Source of the DNA: an uncultured bacterium
GTDB taxonomy: Bacteria > Joyebacterota > Joyebacteria > Joyebacterales > Joyebacteraceae
DNA: 64,000 bases
Assembly (NCBI GenBank): GCA_964516845.1
Contig: CAZEXP010000001.1
Location: 124,665 to 188,664 of the forward strand
Reading direction: 5' to 3'
Every line of letters starts with the position of its first letter. The first letter of the stretch is position 1. This document shows, piece by piece, positions 40,785 through 54,866 of the stretch. The position numbers and the translations under genes were made by a program. A model generated the notes under the pieces. It saw only the letters and a program-made list of their open reading frames with translations. It was not told the DNA's origin and ran no database searches.

Positions 40785-42248
40785 ATGAGCAACGAGGCTG
40801 GGAAGACACGAACACTGATCGTTGGCGCGGGCTCGGCCGGTGGAATGGTCGCGGAGGAGATGCGCCTCAGGCCCGAGCAGGGCTACGCTGCGGTCGGGTT
40901 CCTGGATGACGATACCGCGAAGATCGGGACGCAGGTCGCAGGACTTCCCGTACTCGGCAAGACCTCCGACCTCGTCCGGATCGTCAGGGACTCCGGGATC
41001 GATCAGGTCGTCATAGCGATCCCGTCCGCATCGGGATCCTCCATTCGGAGCGTGGTGGAGCTGTGTGAGGAAGCCGGAACGCCGGCGAAGATCGTTCCGG
41101 GGGTCTGGGAGATCATCCTCGGCGACGTCACGATCAGCCAGCTTCGGCAGGTGGTTCCCGAGGACCTGCTCGGGCGCGAGACGGTGGTGCTCGACTGCGA
41201 GGAGATGACCGGGTACCTGAGCGGTCGCACCGTCCTTATCACGGGAGCGGGGGGATCGATCGGATCGGAACTCGCGCGGCAGGTCGCCTCGTTCGGTCCC
41301 GCCAAGCTGATCATGATGGGTCGTGGTGAGAACAGCATCTACGAGATCGACCAGGAGATCGGCCAGGACTACCCGGACGTCGATCGTCACCTCGTCATCA
41401 GCAGCATCTCCGACCCGATGGCGGTCGAGGTGCTCTTCCGGGACGAGCATCCGGAGATCGTTCTCCACGCCGCGGCGCACAAGCATGTCCATCTGATGGA
41501 GGCCTTCCCGGACGAGGCCGTGAAGAACAACGTGATGGGAACGCGGATCCTCATCGACGCCGCCGTCCGCTACGGCGCCGACCGCGTCGTCATGCTGTCC
41601 ACGGACAAGGCCGTGCGACCCAGAGGCGTCATGGGCGCTTCGAAGCGTGTCGCGGAGTCGATCATGATCGAACGGGCCTCGCGGGGGAGCGCGACCAAGC
41701 TCATCGCCGTCCGGTTCGGCAACGTCCTGGGCAGCCGCGGGAGCGTCGTCCCGCTCTTCCGTCAGCAGATCAGTCACGGAGGTCCGGTGACCGTGACTCA
41801 CCCGGACGTCACACGGTACTTCATGACGATCCGCGAGGCCGCGATGCTCGTTCTCGAGGCGGGTCTCACGGGCCGGGGTGGGGAAATCTTCGTGCTCGAT
41901 ATGGGCGAACCCATGCGCATCGCGGACCTCGCCACGCACCTGATACGGCTCTCCGGGCTCGAGCCCGGCAGGGATATTGCTATTGAGTTCACGGGCCTGC
42001 GGCCGGGGGAGAAGCTCCATGAGGAGCTGTGGTACTCGGACGAGACCCTCCTTGAGACAGGCAGAAAGAAGGTGATGGTCGTCCAGTCTCCGAAGGACGC
42101 CGTCGTCCCGGACCTCTGGGACCGCGTCAGGCGGCTCGAGGAGTTCGCAGAGCACTGCGACCGGGTCGGCGTCATCCGGGAGCTTGCCGACATCTTCCCC
42201 GACATGAAGGTAAGGACGGGCCATGACGACGAAGACGCCGGCCGCTGA
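40785..42248 (+). CDS. UDP-sugar 4,6-dehydratase (CapD/PglF/WbpM family)
   Basis: Two Rossmann regions. VLITGAGGSIGSELARQ and downstream SDR catalytic motifs. Confidence 0.85.
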   Translation: MSNEAGKTRTLIVGAGSAGGMVAEEMRLRPEQGYAAVGFLDDDTAKIGTQVAGLPVLGKTSDLVRIVRDSGIDQVVIAIPSASGSSIRSVVELCEEAGTPAKIVPGVWEIILGDVTISQLRQVVPEDLLGRETVVLDCEEMTGYLSGRTVLITGAGGSIGSELARQVASFGPAKLIMMGRGENSIYEIDQEIGQDYPDVDRHLVISSISDPMAVEVLFRDEHPEIVLHAAAHKHVHLMEAFPDEAVKNNVMGTRILIDAAVRYGADRVVMLSTDKAVRPRGVMGASKRVAESIMIERASRGSATKLIAVRFGNVLGSRGSVVPLFRQQISHGGPVTVTHPDVTRYFMTIREAAMLVLEAGLTGRGGEIFVLDMGEPMRIADLATHLIRLSGLEPGRDIAIEFTGLRPGEKLHEELWYSDETLLETGRKKVMVVQSPKDAVVPDLWDRVRRLEEFAEHCDRVGVIRELADIFPDMKVRTGHDDEDAGR

Positions 42249-43422
42249 GGGCGGCACGCCGGTCAGAGACAACTTCCTGGCGTTCGCGCGCCCTTGCATC
42301 GAGGCGGCGGACATTGAGCTCGTGGTCGAGACGCTGCGGTCCGGGTGGCTCACCGTAGGACCCAGGACACACGACTTCCAGCGCCGAGTAGCCGAGTACG
42401 TCGGCGTCGAGTCCGCGGCCGCGCTGAACTCCTGCACCGCAGGGCTGCATCTCGCCATGGTGGCGCTGGGCATCGGTCCCGGTGATGAGGTCATCCTGCC
42501 GACGATCGACTTCGTGTCCGGAGCGAACACGGTCTGCCATCTTGGGGCCACACCGGTACTCGTCGACGTTGACGCCGAGACGATCTGCGTCACTCCGAAC
42601 ATATTCGAAGCCGCCATCACGGACCGGACGCGTCTGCTGATGCCGGTCCACTTCGCCGGAAGACCGTGCGACATGGACGGCATCATGGAGCTCGCCCGGA
42701 CCCGCGGCATCAAAGTGCTCGGAGACGCCGCGCACGCCATCGGCGCCGACATCGGCGGACGACGCATCGGGAGCATGGCCGACGCGACGTCCTTCAGCTT
42801 CTACGTCACCAAGGGGATCACGACTGGTGAGGGCGGCGCCGTCACATCGACGGACCCGGACCTCACGGCGCGGATCGCGCTACTCGGGCTCCATGGCATG
42901 AGCAGCGACGCCTGGAAGCGCTACAGCGAGAGAGGGCCGTGGTACTACGAAGTGCTCGAAGCAGGGTATAAGTGCAACATGAGCGACATGCAGGCAGCGC
43001 TGGGCCTGTCGCAGATCGATCGCGTGGACACGTTCCGTGAGCGTCGTCGCGAGATCGCCGACGCCTACACCGCCGCGTTCGCGCAGGACCCGAGCATCAC
43101 GCCGCCCGCCGCGTACCTCGACGGACATCACGCGTGGCATCTCTATCCGATCCAGATCGACGTGGACGCTCTCTCGATCGACCGCGACCAGTTCATCAAA
43201 CAGCTGGTCGAGGAAGGTATCGGGGTCAGCGTTCACTTCATTCCGGTTCACTACCATCCGTACTACCGCAAGCTGCTCGGCCTGGAGCGTGGCAGCTTCC
43301 CTGTGGCGGAACACTACTTCGAACGCGCCGTCTCGCTCCCCATCTATCCCTCGATGACTTCGGGCGATGTGGACGACGTGATCGAGGCGGTGCGCAAGCT
43401 GACCTCGTATCACAGGAGGTAG
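42223..43422 (+). CDS. DegT/DnrJ/EryC1/StrS-family PLP-dependent sugar aminotransferase
   Basis: GDEVILPTIDFVS and the PLP-lysine region SFSFYVTKGITTGEGG. Confidence 0.85.
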   Translation: MTTKTPAAEGGTPVRDNFLAFARPCIEAADIELVVETLRSGWLTVGPRTHDFQRRVAEYVGVESAAALNSCTAGLHLAMVALGIGPGDEVILPTIDFVSGANTVCHLGATPVLVDVDAETICVTPNIFEAAITDRTRLLMPVHFAGRPCDMDGIMELARTRGIKVLGDAAHAIGADIGGRRIGSMADATSFSFYVTKGITTGEGGAVTSTDPDLTARIALLGLHGMSSDAWKRYSERGPWYYEVLEAGYKCNMSDMQAALGLSQIDRVDTFRERRREIADAYTAAFAQDPSITPPAAYLDGHHAWHLYPIQIDVDALSIDRDQFIKQLVEEGIGVSVHFIPVHYHPYYRKLLGLERGSFPVAEHYFERAVSLPIYPSMTSGDVDDVIEAVRKLTSYHRR

Positions 43423-43427
43423 CCGTC

Positions 43428-44408
43428 GTGGAGTACACGGTCACCTCACATGTGGATGCAAGGTCGTGGGACGACCTCGTCGCGGGGGACCGTTCAGCGA
43501 GCTTCTTCCAGAGCCGCGTCTGGTCCGAGGTGCTCTCGAGCACACTCCCGGACCACGAGCCGCTCTTCGTCGCGGCGCATCGTGGTGACGAACTCGTCGC
43601 CGGGATTCCCGTCATCCGGCGCAGCCGCGGTCCCGTGATGGTCGTCGAATCGATGCCGTTCGGAACCTACGGCGGCGTGCTCACCACCGACAGGGCGCCG
43701 TCGCAGGCCGCCGCGGAGCTCGTCCTTGCGTTGCTGGACGCCGTCGACGGGATCACGGTCGGGCAGATCCGCATCGTGGATTTCAACGGACGACTCGCGG
43801 ACGCTTGCGACGGATTCGAGCCCGTGACAAGCGAGGCGCAGGTGCTCGATCTCGACCGCCCGTACGATGATGTCTGGGCGGGATTCCGCTCGTCGGTGCG
43901 CAACAAGGTCCGCAAGGCCGAGAAGGCCGGCGTGACGATTCGCGAGGCGCGCGGGACGGATGACTTTCATGCGTATCATCGGCTCCTCGAGGAATGCTCC
44001 GAACGTTGGGGAACGACCAACTCGTTTGATGAGGACTTCTTCGCCGCCCTCGCCGAGAGCGGCAGCGACGCGGTCCAGATGTGGCTCGCGGAGTACGATG
44101 GAGAGATCATAGGCGGAGATCTGAACTTCGTCACTGCTACCTCGGTGTTCAACTGGGGCAATGTCTCGCACCGGGAGTCCGCCAGCCTCGGCACGGTCCC
44201 GCTCCTTCATGCGAACGCCATCGAGGACGGTTGTCGCCGCGGACTGACGACGTACAATCTCGGCGGAAGCGGCGGGATCGACGCCGTCGCCAGGTTCAAG
44301 TCGGCATTTGGAACGAGGTGTGTTCCGTACACCGAGTACGTGCTCGAGAAGGGATGGATGAAGCTCGGGAAGCGTCTCAGGGGACGCATCGAAGGAGACG
44401 CAGCGTGA
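43428..44408 (+). CDS. FemAB/BioF2-like GNAT-fold acyltransferase
   Basis: GTG 43428 with RBS aggagg 8 nt upstream. FemAB-family-like length and pattern (NKVRKAEKAGV...YHRLL...YNLGGSGG). Family call is tentative. Confidence 0.55.
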   Translation: MEYTVTSHVDARSWDDLVAGDRSASFFQSRVWSEVLSSTLPDHEPLFVAAHRGDELVAGIPVIRRSRGPVMVVESMPFGTYGGVLTTDRAPSQAAAELVLALLDAVDGITVGQIRIVDFNGRLADACDGFEPVTSEAQVLDLDRPYDDVWAGFRSSVRNKVRKAEKAGVTIREARGTDDFHAYHRLLEECSERWGTTNSFDEDFFAALAESGSDAVQMWLAEYDGEIIGGDLNFVTATSVFNWGNVSHRESASLGTVPLLHANAIEDGCRRGLTTYNLGGSGGIDAVARFKSAFGTRCVPYTEYVLEKGWMKLGKRLRGRIEGDAA

Positions 44409-45727
44409 ACAGCCGAGCCAGAACGCTCCTCATCATCGCGGTCGCCATCCACGCCGTCATGCTCGCGTCGCTCGTCCACCCTGGACACTTCCTCAACCCG
44501 CTCTTCCCGGAGGCCGTGCACACCATCGCGACGGTCTACGATGAAGGAGTGGCGGTCGGCACACTGGAGGGCGGCGGCCTCGGCGCCGATTTCTTCGCGT
44601 TCTACCAGGCCGGCAGGTATGTCCTCAATGGTGATGACATCTACCGACGCCCGATGGACGATCCCGAGCGCGTCGTGCCGTATGGCTATTTCTATCGCTA
44701 CCTCCCCTTCGTCGCGTACACGCTCGGGGTCGCGTCCAACGCGGTTCCCCCGTGGACGGCGTACTGGCTCTGGGTGCTCCTTGTCGAACTCGTGCTCCTC
44801 TGGTGCATCCTGCTGACGTATCGCGCCGTGCGGGACGGTTGGCTCTTCGCGATGCTGGCGACGATGTGGCTCGTCTTCACGCCGTTCTACATGGAGCAGT
44901 ACATGGGTCAGCTCTCGTTCGTAATGGGCGCGCTGATCTTCGCCATGGTACTGGCCCACGGCCGCGGTCGGGTGAAGCGGTTCGACTGGCTCTGGATCGC
45001 GAGCGTGGTCATCAAGCACATGACCGTCCTGTTCATCCCGATCATGGTCCGCCTGAGGAGATTCGGGACCGTCGCGCTTGCGGGGCTCCTTCTCGGACTG
45101 ACCGCCGTGCCGTATCTGCTGCTTCGCGACAGCGGTGTCGGCGACTTCACGCATGACAATTTCAATCTGACACTCTACCCGTACTCCGGGAATCTCGGCG
45201 CTCTCGCGCTGGTGATGGTGCTCAAGGCGCGCCTCTTGCCGATGGCGTCGGAGATCGGTTTCCAGCTGGGGCCGATCCGCATGACGATCACGCGGATGGC
45301 GATACTCGGGACGATGGCGGTTCCGACACTCGCGGCCCTCTGGGCGACGTTCCGAAGGCGTCCGTTCGATCTCGTGGAGTCGGTCAGCCTCTGGACGATG
45401 GTCTACTTCTTCGTGTTCCGGGAGATATGGGAGTACCACTATGTGCTCCTGATACCGATCTTCGTGCTGCTCTACATGAAGACACGCGCGCGCGTCCTCT
45501 GGTGGATGTACGCGCTGGCGGCGATGCCGACGCTGTTCATTCTCTACGACGTCCCGGCCGCCAAGAGTCCTGAGGTGTACTGGAGCGCGTGGGAACACAT
45601 CCTGAACCACGGCATGAAGGTTGCACCGCTGGTCTGGCTGTTCGTCTGGGTCGCGTGGGGCTTCTACCGGCGCCATGTCACACGGACGGAGCGAGGATCG
45701 ACCAACGATCTGGCGGTCGTTCTCTAG
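44405..45727 (+). CDS. DUF2029 / GT87-like polytopic membrane glycosyltransferase (polyprenyl-P-sugar dependent, GT-C fold)
   Basis: GTG 44405 in GTGA overlap. Periplasmic-loop motif DFFAFYQAGR and about 10 TM helices. Confidence 0.6.
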   Translation: MNSRARTLLIIAVAIHAVMLASLVHPGHFLNPLFPEAVHTIATVYDEGVAVGTLEGGGLGADFFAFYQAGRYVLNGDDIYRRPMDDPERVVPYGYFYRYLPFVAYTLGVASNAVPPWTAYWLWVLLVELVLLWCILLTYRAVRDGWLFAMLATMWLVFTPFYMEQYMGQLSFVMGALIFAMVLAHGRGRVKRFDWLWIASVVIKHMTVLFIPIMVRLRRFGTVALAGLLLGLTAVPYLLLRDSGVGDFTHDNFNLTLYPYSGNLGALALVMVLKARLLPMASEIGFQLGPIRMTITRMAILGTMAVPTLAALWATFRRRPFDLVESVSLWTMVYFFVFREIWEYHYVLLIPIFVLLYMKTRARVLWWMYALAAMPTLFILYDVPAAKSPEVYWSAWEHILNHGMKVAPLVWLFVWVAWGFYRRHVTRTERGSTNDLAVVL

Positions 45728-45758
45728 CACGTCGCCGTGAAACGACTGGAGTCGAGTG

Positions 45759-46871
45759 ATGCGGATCGCGTATCTCTCCATCGGGGGACACATTCACACC
45801 GAGAGGTGGCTGAGACACTTCGTCAACGCGGGACACGACGTCCACCTGATGACGGTCCAGCCCGCGCCGATCGACGGTGTCACCGTTCACGACATCCGGA
45901 CCGGTATTCCGATCAAACCGCTCCACTATGCCGTCGCGCTCGCCAGGGTCAAACGGATCCTGCGAACGATCAAGCCCGATCTGCTCCACACGCACTTCCT
46001 TACCGGATACGGGTACTGGGGAGCCTTCTCGGGCTTCCATCCGTTCATCATGACCGTCTGGGGCGACGATGTGTACGTCACACCGCACGAGACGAAGCTC
46101 AAGGGCTCGCTGGCGAGAGCCGTGCTCGGTCGCGCCGATCTCATCACGGGGGATTCCGAGGACATCCTGACTCACGTCGTGCGGATGGGCGCCGACCCGG
46201 ATATCTGCCGCGTGGTTCAGTGGGGCGTCGATCTCGACCGCTTCCGGCCCGACGCGGACGGCGGGGTCAGGAGGATGCTGGGCATCCCCGAGGACGCGCC
46301 CGTGGTGATCAGTATCAGGAGCTTCACGCAGGCCTACTACAACATCGACACCATCGTTCGCACTGCTCCCGGTGTTCTCGAGAAGCGCCCCGACACGCAC
46401 TACATCATCGCGGGGAACGAGGGAGACGACTCGGAGCTCCGCGCGCTCGCAGATTCTCTCGGCCTCGATGATCGCATCCACTTCGTAGGACGCATCCCGC
46501 ACGAGGAGCTTCCCGGATACCTGGCGACATCCGACGTGTTCCTGACGGTTCCATCGGTCGATGCCACACCGGTCTCTCTGCTCGAGGCCATGGCGTGCGG
46601 CGTGGCGGTGATCATCTCCAACCTCGAGTCCGCCATGGAGTGGGTGACCGACGGCGAGAACGGTCTCGTCGTCAGGCCCGCCGAACGGCGGGAGCTCGAA
46701 GACGCGATTCTGAAGCTCATCGGCGACCCCGCGGCCCGCGAGCGCTTCGCCGCCATCGGCGTCCGGAAGGTGCGCGAGGGCGCCGACCACGCCCGGCACA
46801 TGGACCGGATGGAGCGGCTCTGCGAGGAACTCATCGCCGGGGGAAAGCCGCGAGCCGGAGGAACATCGTGA
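45759..46871 (+). CDS. Glycosyltransferase family 4 (GT-B)
   Basis: C-terminal GT4 signature (VSLLEAMACGVAVIISNLESAMEWVTDGENGL). GTG 45756 or ATG 45759 are both possible starts. Confidence 0.8.
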   Translation: MRIAYLSIGGHIHTERWLRHFVNAGHDVHLMTVQPAPIDGVTVHDIRTGIPIKPLHYAVALARVKRILRTIKPDLLHTHFLTGYGYWGAFSGFHPFIMTVWGDDVYVTPHETKLKGSLARAVLGRADLITGDSEDILTHVVRMGADPDICRVVQWGVDLDRFRPDADGGVRRMLGIPEDAPVVISIRSFTQAYYNIDTIVRTAPGVLEKRPDTHYIIAGNEGDDSELRALADSLGLDDRIHFVGRIPHEELPGYLATSDVFLTVPSVDATPVSLLEAMACGVAVIISNLESAMEWVTDGENGLVVRPAERRELEDAILKLIGDPAARERFAAIGVRKVREGADHARHMDRMERLCEELIAGGKPRAGGTS

Positions 46872-47818
46872 CGACCGTCAGCGTGGTCATTCCCACGTTT
46901 GGCAAGCGTCCGGTCCTCGAACGCACGCTGGAGTCCCTGCGTGTCCAGACGTACCCGACCGAGCTGACAGAGATCGTCGTGGTTGACGACCACTCGGACG
47001 ACGATACGTCGGAGTACCTCCGGAGCCTCTCGCTTCCGCAGCGCCTTGTCGCGATCCGGCACGATGAGAATCTCGGGCGCGCGGCGGCGCGCAACACGGG
47101 CGTCCGCTCGGCCACGGGAGAGCTGATCGTGTTCGTGGATGACGACATGCTCTGCGAGCCCGATCTCATCGAACAGCACGTGGTCTTCCACCAGGATCAC
47201 CCACGGTCTGTCGCTATCGGCGACGCGGTGCAGGCCCCCGAACTCGGCCACTCGACGGCGCTTTCGTACCTCGATGAGATGGGCGTCCACAAACACGAGT
47301 CCGGCTCGCGGGTGCCGGCGCGGTACTTCGTCACGAACAACAGCTCCGTCGAACGCCAATCCATACTCGACGTCGGTCTCTTCGACGAGAGCTTCCGCAA
47401 CTACGGATTCGAGGATACGGAGCTGGCTTTCCGGCTCGAGGACAACGCGGGTCTCTCGACCTGGTACTGCGGGGAGGCGCGCGCCCTCCACGTGCATCCG
47501 CAGTCGTTCGACGACATCCTCGACAAGAGGATCGAGAACGCGCCGCCGCTGCGACACCTCCTCGCGAAGCACCCGGATCGGGCGGGGGAGATGATGGTGG
47601 ACGTCCTGCTGCCCGTTGCCGCCGGTGACTCGGCCGCGCTCAGGGTTCGGAAGCTCCTGGTGGCCGTCGCCACGAACCGGCTCTTCTACCGGACGGTCCG
47701 CGCCGTTGCCAGGACCATCTGGCTTCGTGGACTCTCGCTCAAGGTGATGACCTACCTGATCGCCTGCCAGTACCGCGCGGGGCTCGCGCGGCCCCCACAT
47801 ACTCAGGAACGCCCCTGA
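46868..47818 (+). CDS. Glycosyltransferase family 2
   Basis: GTG 46868 with RBS ggaggaa in GTGA overlap. VSVVIPTFGKRPVLERTLESL...VVDDHSDDDT...VFVDDDM. Confidence 0.75.
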   Translation: MTTVSVVIPTFGKRPVLERTLESLRVQTYPTELTEIVVVDDHSDDDTSEYLRSLSLPQRLVAIRHDENLGRAAARNTGVRSATGELIVFVDDDMLCEPDLIEQHVVFHQDHPRSVAIGDAVQAPELGHSTALSYLDEMGVHKHESGSRVPARYFVTNNSSVERQSILDVGLFDESFRNYGFEDTELAFRLEDNAGLSTWYCGEARALHVHPQSFDDILDKRIENAPPLRHLLAKHPDRAGEMMVDVLLPVAAGDSAALRVRKLLVAVATNRLFYRTVRAVARTIWLRGLSLKVMTYLIACQYRAGLARPPHTQERP

Positions 47819-48055
47819 AAGCGGCCCCTTCGCGGCGTTTCAACACGTGCGCGACGGTTGGGGCGCGCGATCGACGATTGTAACAACCCCGGTGGCACAC
47901 TTCCTGCTTCCTACAGGGAACTGCACAGCAGATGACACGCATACGTTCCCTGCAGTGCGCGTGAGCAGTCACCAGGTCGTGGGCTGATCCCCAATACCCA
48001 GGTCATGAGTCGTACGCCACCTGTTGCACGCCTCAGCGGGGAACGCTTTTTCTCA

Positions 48056-48091
48056 GCCGCCCCCGGCTCTCTACGAGAGCCGGGGGCGGCC
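48056..48091 (+). terminator. 16-bp perfect GC hairpin (GCCGCCCCCGGCTCTC-tacg-GAGAGCCGGGGGCGGC), putative terminator of the glycan operon
   Basis: Read in sequence. Followed by cTTTCC and then directly by the BMC promoter. Confidence 0.45.
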
Positions 48092-48098
48092 CTTTCCA

Positions 48099-48128
48099 TT
48101 GACAGTCGTCACAAGCCTCTGATAGACT
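48099..48128 (+). promoter_or_regulatory. Sigma70-type promoter TTGACA-N18-(TGa)TAGACT upstream of the BMC operon
   Basis: Consensus -35, extended -10 TG and a TAGACT -10. The same cTGATAGACTGC motif recurs at 59317. Confidence 0.45.
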
Positions 48129-48205
48129 GCCCGGGTTCGCGGCAGGTGCCCATGCCGGTGGTGTTTACGCATACCCCGGGGGGGCGATTCCGGCGCTGTG
48201 GAGGC

Positions 48206-48880
48206 ATGTTCGTGAGCGACGTCACACGGATCGCGGATGAGGTGTTGAGGCGGCTTCAGCGGGAGGCGGGCAACCCGCCTCGCGCGCAGGAGCGTCTCGG
48301 GGAAGCGGGAGTCTCGATCCCCGTCGCAGTCAGCGCCCGTCACGCCCACGTCTCGCGGACCGTACTCGATCGTCTCTACGGGGAGGGCTACGCGCTCTCG
48401 AAGAAGAGCGACCTCGGACAGCCCGGGCAGTTCTCAGCCGAGGAGACGGTCACGGTCGTCGGACGCTCCCTGCGCGCCATCGAGGGCGTCCGCATCCTGG
48501 GTCCCGTGAGAACGTACACGCAGGTCGAGATGTCGCGTGCGGACGCCGTCCGTCTGGGCATCGACCCGCCGATCCGCCGCTCCGGTGATCTCGCGGGGAG
48601 TGCGCCGTTGACGCTGGTCGGCCCGCACGGCGCCGTCACCCTCAAGGAGGGTGGTATCCGCGCGACGCGCCATCTCCACATGACCCCGCGCGACGCGGAG
48701 GTTCATCGCGTAGCCGGCGGCGAGCTGGTCCGCGTCCGGTTCAGCGGCCCCGCGGCGCTCGTCCTCGAGAACGTGATGGTCAACATTTCCGAGGACGGGG
48801 CTCTCGAGCTTCATCTTGACACGGACAATGCGGGCGCGGCGGACGTGCGCGGCCCGATGATGGTGAGCATTCTGAAGTAA
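48206..48880 (+). CDS. pduL: Phosphate propanoyl/acyltransferase PduL-type (PTAC) with N-terminal amphipathic extension
   Basis: Two PduL repeats with VSARHAHVS and [11 protein letters not shown] histidine motifs. Start ATG 48206 or GTG 48212; the upstream part of the track ORF contains the terminator and promoter. Confidence 0.8.
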
Positions 48881-49265: not shown

Positions 49266-49360
49266 TCTGACGGGAAGAACACAACGGCACTGGAAACGTG
49301 TGTCGCCATGGGTCCGCAACGGAGCCCGGGGCGACCGAACGCGAGACGCGGGAGGAGAAC

Positions 49361-49651
49361 ATGGGCGAGGCCCTCGGAATGATCGAGACCAGAGGTTTCG
49401 TCGGGATGGTCGAAGCATCCGACGCCATGGTCAAGGCTGCCAAGGTCAAGCTGGTTGGATACGAGAAGGTCGGAGGCGGCTACGTGACCGCCATGGTGCG
49501 CGGTGATGTGGCCGCGGTGCGCGCTGCGGTCGACGCGGGAACCGCGGCGGCCAGCAAGGTCGGGGAACTCATCTCCACGCACGTCATCCCCAGTCCGCAC
49601 ACGAGCCTTGAAGACGTCCTGCCGATCGGCAAGACCGCGAAGTCGAAGTAG
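49361..49651 (+). CDS. BMC-H shell protein, second paralog
   Basis: ATG 49361 with RBS gggaggag. [31 protein letters not shown]...[12 protein letters not shown]. Confidence 0.85.
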
Positions 49652-49652
49652 C

Positions 49653-49943
49653 ATGAACATCGGCCGCGTGGTCGGGACGGTTGTCTCGACACAGAAGGAC
49701 GAGAAGCTGGTCGGTACGAAGCTTCAGATCGTCAAGCAGCTGGGGCTCGACTGCGGCGAGACCGGTTCGTTCGTTGTCGCGATCGACGCCGTGGGCGCAG
49801 GACAGGGCGAGGTGGTCCTGTACGCAAGCGGCAGCTCGGCGCGGCAGACGCCGATCACCAAGGACCGGCCGGCTGACGCCGTGATCATGGCCATCGTGGA
49901 CTCGATCGAGGTCGACGGCGCCACCACGTACGAGAAGAAGTAG
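49653..49943 (+). CDS. BMC-P vertex protein (EutN/PduN/CcmL family), copy 1
   Basis: MNIGRVVGTVVSTQKDEKLVGTKLQIV...AVGAGQGEVVL. 96 aa. Confidence 0.85.
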   Translation: MNIGRVVGTVVSTQKDEKLVGTKLQIVKQLGLDCGETGSFVVAIDAVGAGQGEVVLYASGSSARQTPITKDRPADAVIMAIVDSIEVDGATTYEKK

Positions 49944-49993: not shown

Positions 49994-51418
49994 ATGCCCA
50001 TCGACAGGATAGGGATCGAGTCAATCGTCGAACGCGTCCTCGGAGAGATTGAGGGGGAACGCGCCGCGAGCCCTCCGCCGAAGGCCTTCGACGGGCGTGG
50101 GATACTGCCCGACATCGATGCGGCGACGCTGGCGGCGCTGAGCGCGTTCCGCGAGTTCTCGGAGATACCGCTCGAGGAGCGGCGCGACTTCATCTCCGCA
50201 ATGAGGGCGACGATCCTCGAGCACATCGACGAGCTCTCACAGCTCGCCGTCCAGGAGACCGGGCTCGGGCGCGTGGAGGACAAGGTACGGAAGAACCGGC
50301 TTGCGGCCCGCGCGACCCCCGGGGTCGAGGATCTGAGGGCACACGCCTTCTCCGGCGATCACGGTCTGACGCTCGTCGAGCGGGCGCCCTACGGCGTCAT
50401 CGGCTCGATCACTCCGTCCACCAATCCGTCCGAGACCATTATCAACAACGCCATCAGCATGGTGGCGGCCGGCAACACGGTCGTCTTCAACCCGCACCCG
50501 AGCGCGCGGGTGGTCTCGCTGACCACGATCGACCTGCTCAATCGAGCCATCGCGCAGGCGGGCGGCCCCAGGGCTCTCCTTTTCGCGCCGGTCGATCCAT
50601 CGGTGACATCGGCGCAGGAGCTCATGGCGCATCCGAGTATCCGACTGCTCGTCGTGACGGGCGGACCGGGCGTGGTGAGGGCCGCCATGCAGTCGGGAAA
50701 GCGCGTCGTCGCCGCCGGGCCGGGCAACCCGCCCGTCGTCGTCGATTCGACAGCCGACATCGAGAAGGCCGGCCGCGACATCGTCGCGGGGGCGACTCTC
50801 GACAACAACATCGTCTGCATCGCCGAGAAGGAGATCATCGTCGAGCGCGACGTGGCGGCGCTTCTCAAGCAGTCGCTCGCCGGGGCGGGAGGCGTCGAGA
50901 TCAAGGGACAGTCGCTCGCCCGGCTCATGGACGTTCTCATCGCGGAGGAACACGGTCCGCGACAGCCCGCAACGATGAATCGTGCGTTCATCGGCAAAAA
51001 CATCGAGATCATCCTCGACGCCGCCGGACTCTCATGCCCGCAGGGCGCCCGGATGGCGTTCTTCGAGGCGGACGAGGATCATCCGCTGGTCTGGACGGAA
51101 CAGATGCTCCCGGTGCTTCCCCTCGTCACCGCGCCGAGCGCGAAGGCGGCCATCGAGATGGCAAGGCGCTATGAGCGCGATTGTCGCCACACGGCCGTCA
51201 TGCACTCGAAGAACATCGAGCACATGTCGCTCATGGCGCGGGTGATGGACTGCTCCATCTTCGTGAAGAACGGGCCCTCGTACGCCGGGCTGGGGTTTGG
51301 CGGCGAGGGATTCACGACGTTCACGATCGCGAGCCCGACGGGCGAGGGGCTGACGTCGGCACGCACCTTTACGCGCGAGCGCAGGTGCACACTTGTCGAC
51401 TACTTCAGAATCGTCTAG
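49994..51418 (+). CDS. CoA-acylating aldehyde dehydrogenase (PduP/EutE-like) with N-terminal extension
   Basis: ALDH fold with the catalytic Cys region LDNNIVCIAEKE. N-terminal 40 aa precede the ALDH core. Confidence 0.85.
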   Translation: MPIDRIGIESIVERVLGEIEGERAASPPPKAFDGRGILPDIDAATLAALSAFREFSEIPLEERRDFISAMRATILEHIDELSQLAVQETGLGRVEDKVRKNRLAARATPGVEDLRAHAFSGDHGLTLVERAPYGVIGSITPSTNPSETIINNAISMVAAGNTVVFNPHPSARVVSLTTIDLLNRAIAQAGGPRALLFAPVDPSVTSAQELMAHPSIRLLVVTGGPGVVRAAMQSGKRVVAAGPGNPPVVVDSTADIEKAGRDIVAGATLDNNIVCIAEKEIIVERDVAALLKQSLAGAGGVEIKGQSLARLMDVLIAEEHGPRQPATMNRAFIGKNIEIILDAAGLSCPQGARMAFFEADEDHPLVWTEQMLPVLPLVTAPSAKAAIEMARRYERDCRHTAVMHSKNIEHMSLMARVMDCSIFVKNGPSYAGLGFGGEGFTTFTIASPTGEGLTSARTFTRERRCTLVDYFRIV

Positions 51419-51431
51419 GGGACATGCGACC

Positions 51432-52760
51432 GTGAGCGCGAACCTCAGTGATGCGATACGGGCGGCAGGTGTCGTGGGAGCCGGAGGCGGCGGTTTCCCG
51501 ACCCACGTCAAGGCCGAGGGCAAGGCCGATACGCTCCTCGCCAACGGAGCCGAGTGCGAGCCGCTCCTGAAGGCCGACAGCGCGATGATGAGGGCGGAGC
51601 CCGCGCGCGTGCTCGCCGGTCTTACGCTCATGCGGGACGCCGTCGGCGCCGAGCGCGCCGTCCTCGCCGTGAAACGCAAGAACCTCGACGCTCTTTCCGG
51701 ACTCCGGGAGGCGGCCGAGGCGGCGGAGGGCGTCGAACTCCTCGTCCTGGACAATGTCTATCCCGCGGGCGACGAGTTTCTGCTGGTCTTCGAGGCGACG
51801 GGACGCGTTGTCCCCGAGGGCGGGCTCCCGCTCGATGTCGGTGTCGTCGTGAACAACGTCACCACGCTGGCGCAGGTCGCTGACGCTCGCGAGGGACGCC
51901 CCGTCACGCACCGGTTCGTCACGGTGCAGGGCGAGGTGAACAGTCCCGTGACCTTGTGGGCGCCCGTCGGAACGCAGCTCTCGGCACTGCTCGATGCTGC
52001 CGGGGGACCGAAACTCGACGAGTTCTCGGTCATCGCCGGCGGTCCGATGATGGGACGCCTGGCCGACCTGACCGAACCAACCGACAAGATGCTGGCCGGG
52101 ATCATCGTGCTCCGAAACTCGCATCATCTCATCACGGTGAGGAAGGAGACCGCCGGTCACGCCCTGAAGATCGCTCGGGCCGCGTGCTGCCAGTGCATGG
52201 CGTGCACGGAGCTGTGCCCGAGGGCGCTTCTCGGCCACGACCTCCAGCCGCATCGAACCGTGCGCGCGATCCAGTACTCGATGGAGGCCTCCGAGCACGC
52301 GCACGTCACATCGGCGTATCTCTGTTGCGAATGCGGCATGTGCGAGCTCTTCGCGTGCCCGCTCGAGATCAGGCCGAGGAGGATCCTCTCGGAGCTCAAG
52401 GCCGAGCTCAAGCGGCGGGGAGTCGAGAACCCGCATCGGAGACGGGAACTCGACGCCGACGCGGTCCGGCAGTACCGACAGATCCCTTCGGCGCGGCTGG
52501 TCCAGCGTCTCGGCCTGTCTCAGTATGACGGTCCCGCCGAGGCCATCGGCGACGCGCTCCAGGCGCGGCGAGTGCGCCTGCTGATGCGCCAGCACATCGG
52601 CGCGCCGGCGGTGCCCGTCGTCGAACAGGGAGCGAGCGTGCTCGCCGGCGATGTCGTGGGTGAGATTCCTGCAGGAGCCCTTGGCGCACGCGTACACGCC
52701 AGTATCAGCGGCGAGGTGACGCGAGTCAGCACAACGGAAGTGGTCGTCGAGCGTCGATAG
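51432..52760 (+). CDS. PduS/RnfC-family Fe-S flavoprotein (Complex1_51K-like NAD(H)/FMN module + two 4Fe-4S motifs + C-terminal barrel-sandwich domain)
   Basis: GAGGGGFPTHVK...ANGAECEPLLKAD, CCQCMACTELCP and CCECGMCELFACP. GTG 51432 is 9 nt after RBS aggggac. Confidence 0.75.
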   Translation: MSANLSDAIRAAGVVGAGGGGFPTHVKAEGKADTLLANGAECEPLLKADSAMMRAEPARVLAGLTLMRDAVGAERAVLAVKRKNLDALSGLREAAEAAEGVELLVLDNVYPAGDEFLLVFEATGRVVPEGGLPLDVGVVVNNVTTLAQVADAREGRPVTHRFVTVQGEVNSPVTLWAPVGTQLSALLDAAGGPKLDEFSVIAGGPMMGRLADLTEPTDKMLAGIIVLRNSHHLITVRKETAGHALKIARAACCQCMACTELCPRALLGHDLQPHRTVRAIQYSMEASEHAHVTSAYLCCECGMCELFACPLEIRPRRILSELKAELKRRGVENPHRRRELDADAVRQYRQIPSARLVQRLGLSQYDGPAEAIGDALQARRVRLLMRQHIGAPAVPVVEQGASVLAGDVVGEIPAGALGARVHASISGEVTRVSTTEVVVERR

Positions 52761-52832
52761 CGCGCACCGCACGCGTCGACCTCGTAGAGGACACGACGTC
52801 ATGGATGACGCGACGTCGGAGAGGATGAACGA

Positions 52833-53423
52833 TTGGCGAAGAAGCGTTCTCAAATGGACGCCCCGAAGCGCGGACGACTCGAGGCGATCGCGATCATAGA
52901 GACCATCAGCATCGCCGTCGGGATCCAGATCACCGACGCGATGGCCAAGATGGCCAGCGTCGAGATCCTCGAATCGACTCCGATCTGTCCCGGCAAGTAC
53001 ATGGTGCTGGTGGCAGGCGGCGTCTCCGATGTGGAGTCCTCGCTGAAGCGTGGCATCGAGATCGGCGGGGACGTCATCGCCGACACCCTGTCGATACCTC
53101 ACGTCCATCCGGACATCTTCCCGGCCATCCTCGGCGCCGTCGACGTGGGCGAGCTGGGGGCGCTCGGCGTTGTCGAGACGTTCACGGTCGCCTCCTCGAT
53201 CCTCGCGGCTGATGCCGCGGCGAAGGCCGCACGCGTTCGTATCCTCGAGATTCGTGTCGCGAAGGGACTCGGCGGCAAGGGCTTCTTCACGATGACGGGC
53301 GAGGTGCACGAGGTGGAGGCCGCTATGGAGGCGGCTCTTCAGGTCACGAAGGAATCCGGGACGCTCGTGCGCAGCGTCGTCATCCCACGACCGCACCCGA
53401 GTCTAGCGGCGACGGTCCTGTAG
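52833..53423 (+). CDS. Tandem-domain BMC shell protein (BMC-T)
   Basis: 196 aa with two successive BMC-fold halves (AIAIIETISIAVGI... and LGALGVVETFTVASSILAADAAAKAARV...). TTG start with RBS ggagagga. Confidence 0.75.
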   Translation: MAKKRSQMDAPKRGRLEAIAIIETISIAVGIQITDAMAKMASVEILESTPICPGKYMVLVAGGVSDVESSLKRGIEIGGDVIADTLSIPHVHPDIFPAILGAVDVGELGALGVVETFTVASSILAADAAAKAARVRILEIRVAKGLGGKGFFTMTGEVHEVEAAMEAALQVTKESGTLVRSVVIPRPHPSLAATVL

Positions 53424-53455: not shown

Positions 53456-53749
53456 GTGCATTTCGGCAGGGTCATCGGCTCGGTCTGGGCGACTCAGAAG
53501 GTCCCGACGCTCAAGGGCGCGCGGATGCTGATCGTCCAGCCTCTGACGCATACGCTCGAGGAGAAAGGGCAACCGCTCGTAGCCGTCGACACCGTCGAGG
53601 CTGCGCCCGGACAGATCATCTACTTCGTGATGTCGCGCGAGGCGTGCAAGGCGATGGAGGAGCGCTTCAACCCGGTCGACGCGGCGATCGTCGGCATCGT
53701 CGATGAGATATCACTGGCCGATGCAGCGATCGACGGGGGGGACGTCTGA
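53456..53749 (+). CDS. BMC-P vertex protein (EutN/CcmL family), copy 2
   Basis: GTG start with RBS ggaggag. (M)HFGRVIGSVWATQKVPTLKGARMLIV. Confidence 0.8.
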   Translation: MHFGRVIGSVWATQKVPTLKGARMLIVQPLTHTLEEKGQPLVAVDTVEAAPGQIIYFVMSREACKAMEERFNPVDAAIVGIVDEISLADAAIDGGDV

Positions 53750-53750
53750 C

Positions 53751-54023
53751 ATGTTTCTCGCACGCGTGATAGGGGAACTCGTCTCGACGATCAAGCATGA
53801 GTCGCTCCACGCCCAAACGCTGCTGATCATCGACCGGATCGATCTCGAGGACCATCAGACCGGCGCCACCCTGATAGCAGTCGATTCGGTGTCCGCGGGC
53901 GTAGGGGACACCGTGCTCGTCGTGGACGAGGGCGGCTCCGCGGCCATCGTCACCGGGCTTGCCGACCCGCCGATCAGAACGGTCATCGTCGGCATCGTCG
54001 ATCACTTCGACGTGGAGGTGTGA
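53751..54023 (+). CDS. BMC-P vertex protein (EutN/CcmL family), copy 3
   Basis: MFLARVIGELVSTIKHESLHAQTLLII...AVDSVSAGVGDTVLV. Confidence 0.8.
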   Translation: MFLARVIGELVSTIKHESLHAQTLLIIDRIDLEDHQTGATLIAVDSVSAGVGDTVLVVDEGGSAAIVTGLADPPIRTVIVGIVDHFDVEV

Positions 54024-54027
54024 CGTC

Positions 54028-54828
54028 GTGCTGAGCGAGTTCGAAGCGCGCCGCGATATCGTCGAGATCGGCCGTCGGCTCTGGCAACGCGGATACGTTG
54101 CCTCGAACGACGGCAACATCAGCGCGCGCCTCGACGGCGAACGGATACTCGTGACGCCCTCGGGCCTTTCGAAAGGCTTTCTCTCCACGACCGATCTCGT
54201 CGTTGTCACGCCCGAAGGCAGGAAGCTCTCGGGAGAGCGCGAGCCCACCTCGGAACTCCCGCTTCACCTCTCGGTCTACTCCCGTCGCGCCGACGTCGCC
54301 GGTATCGTGCACGCCCATCCACCGGTCGCGACCGGGTACGCCGTTGCTCGTGTCCCACTTGCGCAGTGCATTCTTCCCGAGGTCGTGCTGACGCTCGGGT
54401 CGGTTCCGACCGCGGACTACGCGACGCCTTCTACCTCCGCGGTTGCCGAGAGCATCGCGCGCTACGTCGACGACTACAGCGCCATACTGCTGGCGAACCA
54501 CGGGGCGCTCGCGCTCGGCAAGACTCTCTACGAAGCGTATTTCCGGATGGAGACGATCGAACACTTCGCTCAGATCGCCCTCACCGCGCGTCAGCTGGGA
54601 GGAGCATCGCCGCTGACACCGGGTGAGATCGAGGACCTCGCGGTGATCCGGGAGAAACTCGGCGTGCGAGTGCCGGAGGACAGCTGTCTGAGCTGTGGCG
54701 CGTGCACCGGCTCCGACGGCGCCGATGCCGGAACAGCGCCGTCCCGGACCGCGTCCGGCCAGGCCAGCCTCGACGAATCGCTGGTTCAGGAGGTCATGGC
54801 GGAGATCGCCCGACGTCGTTCCGGCTGA
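54028..54828 (+). CDS. Class II aldolase/adducin-family enzyme (fuculose/rhamnulose-phosphate aldolase-like) with C-terminal extension
   Basis: GTG 54028 with RBS ggagg 9 nt upstream. GNISAR, VHAHPP and LLANHGAL are class II aldolase metal and active-site motifs. About 50 extra C-terminal residues. Confidence 0.8.
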   Translation: MLSEFEARRDIVEIGRRLWQRGYVASNDGNISARLDGERILVTPSGLSKGFLSTTDLVVVTPEGRKLSGEREPTSELPLHLSVYSRRADVAGIVHAHPPVATGYAVARVPLAQCILPEVVLTLGSVPTADYATPSTSAVAESIARYVDDYSAILLANHGALALGKTLYEAYFRMETIEHFAQIALTARQLGGASPLTPGEIEDLAVIREKLGVRVPEDSCLSCGACTGSDGADAGTAPSRTASGQASLDESLVQEVMAEIARRRSG

Positions 54829-54866
54829 AAAAGGACCCGCTCCGAGCGGGCCCGGGAGGATGACGA

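Follow-up and report, generated by a model that had tools for sequence, protein, structure and literature searches.

A conserved cysteine motif in the C-terminal tail of a microcompartment class II aldolase from an uncultured bacterium

Class II aldolases of bacterial microcompartments (BMCs) are known to carry targeting tails. A survey found a C-terminal encapsulation peptide (EP) of about 17 residues on 21 of 23 BMC-associated enzymes of this family, with linkers of 23 to 81 residues (Aussignargues et al. 2015, PMC4594438), and a C-terminal EP was likewise noted on the aldolase of ACI loci (Sutter et al. 2021, PMC8217296). Here we describe a class II aldolase gene (54028..54828, plus strand) that stands last in a BMC locus within a 64,000-nucleotide stretch of DNA from an uncultured bacterium of the Joyebacterota (GCA_964516845.1, contig CAZEXP010000001.1, forward-strand positions 124,665 to 188,664), which will be referred to as the window and whose numbering is used throughout. 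The closest named relatives of this lineage, at about 57-63% identity, belong to Candidatus Eisenbacteria. Enzyme family and terminus are the same as for the EPs published from PVM, PVM-like, GRM5 and ACI loci (PMC4594438, PMC8217296), the predicted helix of 16-18 residues and the distance of about 36 residues from core to helix compare well with the published values, and the locus shares with published aldolase loci the logic of aldolase, aldehyde dehydrogenase (AldDh), phosphotransacylase (PTAC) and a triplet of BMC-P proteins. This comparison supports the view that the last 55 residues are an already known kind of BMC cargo-targeting tail, catalogued since 2015; the protein is an EP-tagged BMC aldolase from an uncultured lineage, and its EP part adds nothing new. 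The difference lies where the tail begins. The 2015 survey described the linker as unconserved, whereas the first seven residues of this segment in the window form a conserved CxxCGxC motif, and Cys114 of the catalytic core is conserved with them. We estimate a probability of roughly 75% that the aldolase is the signature cargo of a metabolosome and that its tail combines an EP helix, a disordered spacer and a cysteine knuckle which most likely binds metal. The tail would then consist of three parts (residues 220-266, the last 47) appended to a FucA-like, zinc-dependent catalytic core.

The gene starts with GTG, ends with a TGA stop codon at 54826-54828 and encodes 266 amino acids, of which residues 10-185 match the Pfam family Aldolase_II (PF00596; E 3.9e-48, 164.2 bits against a cut-off of 22.2). 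An AlphaFold2 model with a mean predicted local distance difference test score (pLDDT) of 85.5 was matched by Foldseek to structures of L-fuculose-phosphate aldolase (FucA) and YgbL with a probability of 1.00 and target-normalised TM-scores of 0.86-0.91. Residues H95, H97, H158 and E76 are invariant among 120 homologues and align with the metal ligands H92, H94, H155 and E73 of FucA. The sequence used in this alignment, which we take to be that of FucA, has a length of 215 residues, in agreement with 1fua. Profile match, metal ligands and fold thus bear out the class II aldolase identity proposed in an earlier note on this DNA, which had been written from the letters and their translations. 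The structures of FucA (1FUA and mutants) and YgbL/OtnC (6VOQ, 6VOP) share the fold, the metal site of three histidines and one glutamate and a core of about 212 residues with the window aldolase, but they end at about residue 207-222 and have no cysteine knuckle, linker or helix. No solved homologue aligns beyond about residue 213, the end of E. coli FucA falls opposite residue 214 or so, and FucA-type chains measure 200-222 amino acids, which agrees with the earlier statement that free-standing FucA is about 50 residues shorter.

None of the NCBIfam equivalog cut-offs was reached (OtnC, the best, 136 bits against 250; the best FucA model, 112 against 264), and the alignment places Leu116 and Leu211 at the positions of FucA Tyr113 and Tyr209. 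The family of the aldolase is therefore certain, whereas its substrate is not established, and a substrate-specific assignment as L-fuculose-phosphate aldolase is not supported, given the low score and the leucines in place of both tyrosines. In the NCBIfam and PDB sequence comparisons it was 3-oxo-tetronate-4-phosphate decarboxylase (OtnC/YgbL), and not FucA, that gave the top matches; all of them stayed below equivalog level. The microcompartment may process a substrate other than fuculose or rhamnulose phosphate.

Eight residues past the FucA-like core lies the cysteine knuckle C220-L-S-C223-G-A-C226 (C-x2-C-G-x-C; 54685..54705, plus strand). The spacing had been given before as Cys-x2-Cys-x3-Cys, which is wrong; the actual spacing of CLSCGAC is C-x2-C-x2-C. 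The earlier note offered no explanation for the cluster. Among the 120 homologues, C220 is kept in 117, C223 in 105, G224 in 102 and C226 in 103, and the adjacent linker columns have no majority residue. The complete CxxCGxC motif was found in 97 homologues, where its start always falls at residue 218-233, and all 97 also possess Cys114 (codon 54367..54369, plus strand), the candidate fourth ligand of the tail cysteines, which is a cysteine in 109 of the 120. The earlier note had considered that unconserved cysteines would speak against its proposal, and the opposite was observed; judged by this conservation, the three cysteines are not there by chance. A gene-calling or read-through artefact could be ruled out for the tail, as more than 100 homologues conserve it up to the stop codon, and gene calling done independently for two public contigs gave the identical 266-residue product with identical neighbours.

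Three to four cysteines and a glycine, all conserved and fixed in position, argue for a metal site at the junction of core and tail. CLSCGAC would most likely be a knuckle binding this metal centre, probably with the help of Cys114, and we regard a metal or Fe-S (iron-sulphur) binding site at the knuckle as probable on the basis of these sequence features. Cys114 belongs to a loop and precedes by two residues the position of the FucA active-site residue Tyr113, and the triad follows nine residues after the position of Tyr209. In FucA active-site studies both tyrosines are said to belong to one subunit. FucA mutagenesis entries in the PDB (1dzv, 1e48) target both of them, mutated together. FucA itself has an isoleucine at the position of Cys114.

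A second, deeply separated family retains part of the motif. In 96 aligned planctomycete-type sequences from a separately seeded search, C113, C222, D223, C225 and N227 (NCDLCGN) are invariant (96/96) and the first cysteine is optional. These planctomycete-type aldolases (P0275-P0392) also show the majority consensus GNSxFxRGYxExxPxxxAF after N-C-D-L-C-G-N, which is missing in the clade of the window and is predicted by AlphaFold2 with low confidence. The spacing of the third cysteine varies in some lineages (C-x2-C-x3-8-C). When representatives at 50% identity were compared, Cys114 was present in 38 of 86 extension-bearing but only 6 of 56 short proteins, and among the extension-bearing ones Cys114 and a tail CxxC co-occurred with an odds ratio of 3.9 (p 0.006, without correction for phylogeny).

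Some aldolases deviate further. The tail of P0217 (L083), encoded on a 1.1-kb contig, contains two cysteine triads (CETCGTC ... CATCQACP) and in this recalls a ferredoxin with two clusters. The second copy in Moorella mulderi (L039) breaks off within the motif (GCTGYGG-stop) without linker or EP; it has no shell genes within 8 kb and a PduS-like match nearby, and may have been truncated or be in decay. In the Vicinamibacterales (ACI-type) clade residue 114 is alanine and the triad is replaced by a two-cysteine segment, PAPIC-x8-20-CQ(V/T). The ACI-type loci (L019, L023, L027-L033 and about 30 more from Vicinamibacterales and Acidobacteriota) have a distinct EP, EIRLTYRELTALIEDAV, and no PduS, PduT-motif BMC-T or AldDh was found within 8 kb of them.

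Two distant cysteines of the Vicinamibacterales type could form only a disulfide or a bridge, and CxxC is a classic dithiol/disulfide motif in a region that is predicted to be flexible. The cysteines might on these grounds act as a cofactor-free disulfide or thiol switch, within or between chains, through which the redox state of the lumen alters tail conformation, cargo aggregation or activity. We consider this improbable. Two cysteines would suffice for a switch, yet three are conserved together with Cys114 and G224 (102/120), suggesting a backbone shaped for a ligand; many of the carriers, for example Moorella, probably live anaerobically and have a reducing cytoplasm; and the locus encodes no thioredoxin-like partner. 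Metal binding accounts for the knuckle more readily, and the kind of metal centre can be considered in the light of the neighbouring genes.

Upstream of the aldolase gene the locus encodes a PduS/RnfC-like flavoprotein with a 4Fe-4S dicluster domain (51393..52760, plus strand; Pfam Complex1_51K, SLBB, Fer4_17 and RnfC_N; TIGR01945 rnfC, 250 bits) and a PduT-like tandem-domain BMC-T protein (52833..53423, plus strand; two Pfam BMC domains). The best NCBIfam model for the latter, eut_PduT, gave 103 bits and did not reach its cut-off of 250. PduT proteins bind a [4Fe-4S] cluster and have the pore-cysteine motif C-[PSA]-G-[KRS]-[YF] (Ferlez et al. 2019, PMC6325248), which is matched by ICPGKY in the window protein (Cys codon 52986-52988). 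The window thus has the tandem genes of the PduS/PduT conduit of PDU and GRM BMCs (PMC6325248), but a B12 or glycyl-radical enzyme and an alcohol dehydrogenase are absent from its locus. The tandem (51393-53423) suggests NAD+ recycling via electron export through the shell.

For the clade of the window an Fe-S cluster seems to us more likely than a single zinc ion, because the spacing is of the ferredoxin type, the locus contains the PduS/PduT conduit and the motif tracks this conduit across loci; metal binding and a redox role would both be deduced from these features. The ferredoxin [4Fe-4S] motif C-x2-C-x2-C-x3-C-P shares C-x2-C-G-x-C with the window, including the glycine after the second cysteine. 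The gene-content comparison was made on 59 loci that have shell genes and an upstream flank of 5 kb or more. All 14 loci with a PduS-like gene encode a three-cysteine aldolase, and 11 of them also a BMC-T with the PduT motif, whereas neither PduS (0/41) nor a PduT-motif BMC-T (0/41) was found in the loci whose aldolase has two cysteines or fewer. A scan of the tail alone against profiles yielded only NCBIfam FdxA_fam, placed over the motif with a weak E value of 0.029 and 14.5 bits against a cut-off of 65. Membership in a ferredoxin family was rejected on that score and for the lack of any Pfam Fer4 match on the aldolase; apart from the shared cysteines the tail shows no fourth Cys-Pro and no ferredoxin fold, and is predicted to be flexible.

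Several observations weigh against a metal centre of this kind. Four of the 59 loci have a three-cysteine aldolase without PduS and PduT-motif BMC-T. The association with PduS shows phylogenetic clustering, a single acidobacterial clade supplying 37 of the 41 negative loci, and at the level of lineages (about 11) it reaches only p ~0.06. The fourth ligand of ferredoxins (CP at +3) is missing, and the FdxA match stays below its cut-off. AlphaFold2 monomers offer no support for a folded site, the pLDDT of the cysteine region being about 50-70 in the window aldolase and about 45 in the planctomycete type, a low confidence that does not amount to a negative result. Cys114 as a strict partner of the triad had to be rejected, since Neomoorella (L008, L015) has proline and Acididesulfobacillus (L020) tyrosine at this position and both keep CxxCGxC. 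Finally, planctomycete BMCs, which are aerobic by description (PMC4207490), keep CxxC and C113 only, a pattern that suits a zinc or structural role better than an oxygen-labile cluster.

This last point leads to an alternative metal site, a single structural zinc or iron ion held by a rubredoxin-type CxxCG knuckle and Cys114 without any redox role. Such an ion would clamp a catalytically relevant C-terminal segment to the core, so that the linker and EP tether cannot pull the segment away from the active site. CxxCG is common to both deep families (C220-x-x-C223-G in the window; C222-D-L-C225 followed by a majority G-N in the planctomycete type, with C113, C222 and C225 unchanged in every sequence in spite of the aerobic setting), the third cysteine tolerates a spacing of 2-8 residues, and Cys114 and the base of the tail flank the positions of FucA Tyr113 and Tyr209. 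Compared with rubredoxin, the window aldolase has a single CxxCG knuckle to which C226 and the remote C114 can be added, four cysteines in total, and no second knuckle. A cysteine trio spaced x2-x2 within seven residues is more typical of a cubane cluster than of a single ion. Furthermore, the strict CxxCGxC form is confined to PduS-encoding loci (9/9), all three tail cysteines persist in lineages that lack Cys114, and the region is unfolded in AlphaFold2 although real zinc knuckles are often predicted with confidence. The clamp is a possible explanation, to which we would still assign odds clearly below even.

The more elaborate proposal, which we put forward as tentative and less likely than not, is that BMC class II aldolases possess an unrecognised second metal centre made of the tail knuckle (CxxCGxC in the window, CxxC in the planctomycete type) and Cys114, which in PduS/PduT lineages would be a redox-active Fe-S cluster linked to the electron conduit from lumen to cytosol. 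There it might serve as a relay, as a redox sensor gating activity or packaging, or as the partner that provides a ligand to the open iron in the pore cluster of PduT.

The 2015 survey describes the linker without composition or sequence conservation, and the word cysteine is absent from its text; in the portion of its table retrieved here, the aldolase linkers contain 5.5% cysteine compared to 0-2.8% in the other linkers (PMC4594438). The review of Ferlez et al. 2019 (PMC6325248) leaves a cysteine motif on the signature aldolase unmentioned, and the motif is not discussed in the relevant BMC papers within the open-access full-text literature. By its conservation the knuckle is a motif in its own right, apparently undescribed, and not linker.

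The region 54673-54828 (plus strand), the 3′ end of the aldolase gene, translates to PEDSCLSCGACTGSDGADAGTAPSRTASGQASLDESLVQEVMAEIARRRSG followed by the stop codon, exactly as quoted in the earlier note. Behind the knuckle, residues 227-248 (TGSDGADAGTAPSRTASGQASL; 54706..54771, plus strand) form a flexible linker, recognised by its low pLDDT and its divergence within the clade. G, A, S, T and D are abundant in it, and the pLDDT stays below 50 over residues 226-247, so that the description as a low-complexity linker holds. In the eight closest relatives (77-100% identity) the identity to the window aldolase is 0.91 for the core, 0.95 for the triad, 0.37 for the linker and 0.88 for the helix. 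Linker indels among close relatives reach about 15 residues, and 24-94 residues follow the cysteine motif in the homologues. Residues 227-248 would accordingly serve, to judge from these values, as a disordered and freely evolving spacer.

The candidate EP helix comprises residues 249-266 (DESLVQEVMAEIARRRSG; 54772..54825, plus strand), as indicated by the AlphaFold2 helix, conserved columns and co-occurrence with shell genes. AlphaFold2 predicted a helix at 250-265 with a block-mean pLDDT of about 75, and L252, V253, V256, M257 and I260 form a hydrophobic stripe on it; in about 90% or more of the 120 homologues columns 252, 253, 256, 257 and 260 carry residues of the I/L/V type. The hydrophobic moment of the single sequence, on the other hand, did not stand out from that of its own residues in random order (reached in 693-1570 of 3000 shuffles); across the 120 homologues the mean z-score was 1.2, with 92% positive. 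The amphipathic helix noted earlier therefore stands as to predicted helix, stripe and conserved columns but not as to the moment, and because the moment test fails against shuffles, support for an EP rests on the conservation of columns and not on amphipathicity.

The association of the tail with microcompartments was evaluated in 80 related genome loci, in which shell genes were scored within 8 kb. An extension with an EP-like hydrophobic pattern was present in 70 of 70 loci with shell genes, none of which lacked it, and it was absent in all three full-flank loci without shell genes (L039, L070, L080). Three features expected of an EP were found: the extension is absent in non-BMC homologues, the linker is poorly conserved, and shell genes lie alongside. 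The cargo-targeting function proposed in the earlier note is supported by the BMC locus itself, the co-occurrence with shell genes, a conserved helix behind a freely evolving linker, similar helices on AldDh and PTAC, and the published EPs; the absence of the extension from orthologous BMC loci, which was named there as evidence to the contrary, was not encountered in the related shell-gene loci. Sequence, conservation and gene context reveal the EP features, and targeting itself would follow by analogy with published EP work. Helix 249-266 would carry the aldolase oligomer into the lumen of the compartment, either because it binds shell proteins on their inner face or because it co-aggregates with the helices of AldDh and PTAC.

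Since the three-cysteine motif is associated with PduS/PduT loci, and since in the PduT cluster the fourth ligand to iron is not known (PMC6325248), the whole extension could instead be primarily an Fe-S electron-transfer module whose helix docks to PduS/PduT and has no general role in encapsulation. This is very improbable. Helix and linker occur in all 41 shell-gene loci without PduS/PduT whose aldolase has at most two cysteines, the ACI clade included, as well as in the planctomycete types; AldDh and PTAC carry similar helices that lack cysteines; and in other cargo, helices of this kind have been established as EPs (PMC4594438). An EP helix behind a spacer and a knuckle thus remains our preferred description of the tail.

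The genes of the locus all lie compactly on the same strand in the order PTAC, BMC-H, BMC-P, AldDh, PduS-like, PduT-like BMC-T, two BMC-P and, last, the aldolase. The PduL-type PTAC (48206..48880, plus strand; Pfam PTAC, E 1.3e-61) is contained in a longer open reading frame (ORF; 48005-48880) with an N-terminal extension of 105 residues ahead of the Pfam domain. If translation began at Met68 (48206), the protein would start with an EP-like helix (48218-48265) that has its highest hydrophobic moment, 0.94; Met68 is probably the true start and the longer one spurious. It is followed by the BMC-H shell protein (49298..49651, plus strand; Pfam BMC, E 3.2e-30), for which an internal start is likely, and a first BMC-P pentamer protein (49503..49943, plus strand; Pfam EutN_CcmL, E 5.8e-28), whose domain begins at residue 51 of the ORF. 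AldDh (49994..51418, plus strand; Pfam Aldedh, E 1.5e-36) starts with an N-terminal EP-like helix, IGIESIVERVLGEIEG, at 50009-50056. Between the PduT-like protein and the aldolase lie the second BMC-P protein (53456..53749, plus strand; Pfam EutN_CcmL, E 1.5e-27), a 97-residue gene call on the public contigs, and the third (53751..54023, plus strand; Pfam EutN_CcmL, E 2.4e-23), a 90-residue call on the same contigs inside the ORF 53703-54023.

With aldolase, AldDh, PTAC, three BMC-P, one BMC-H and one BMC-T, the locus has the gene content described for PVM and PVM-like loci (PMC4207490). The accessory genes of PVM proper (DeoR regulator, acetate kinase, and a lactaldehyde reductase or alcohol dehydrogenase that recycles NAD+) were not found among the large ORFs at 40.7-63.4 kb, and the same scan revealed no kinase, regulator or alcohol dehydrogenase; a B12 or glycyl-radical enzyme is absent from the BMC locus. 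We classify the locus as a compact aldolase-type metabolosome that is PVM-like.

The flanks are unrelated to the BMC locus. Directly upstream, a polysaccharide-biosynthesis cluster (40785-47818) encodes a Polysacc_synt_2 dehydratase, a DegT aminotransferase, a FemAB-like acetyltransferase and GT87, GT4 and GT2 glycosyltransferases, and the genes downstream encode an S49 peptidase, a FadL-like protein, TPR proteins and a DUF4837 protein. Close behind the aldolase stop codon, at a distance of 5 nt, positions 54833-54853 hold a GC-rich hairpin of 9 bp, GGACCCGCTCCGAGCGGGCCC. Its T-run lies on the minus strand only, with an A-run ahead of it on the plus strand, and the S49 peptidase starts 14 nt further on; the hairpin may end or stabilise the transcript.

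The supposedly unconserved linker of BMC class II aldolases holds one of the best-conserved motifs of these proteins, and the motif is common to the planctomycete type that has been studied experimentally. Should it prove to be a metal site, engineered EP fusions and truncations would best have their cutting point behind residue 226 and not behind the catalytic core, and heterologous expression of BMC aldolases may need loading with metal or Fe-S. In that case the knuckle would also be a candidate component for PduS/PduT-dependent recycling of NAD+ across the shell in those aldolase BMCs that lack an alcohol dehydrogenase.

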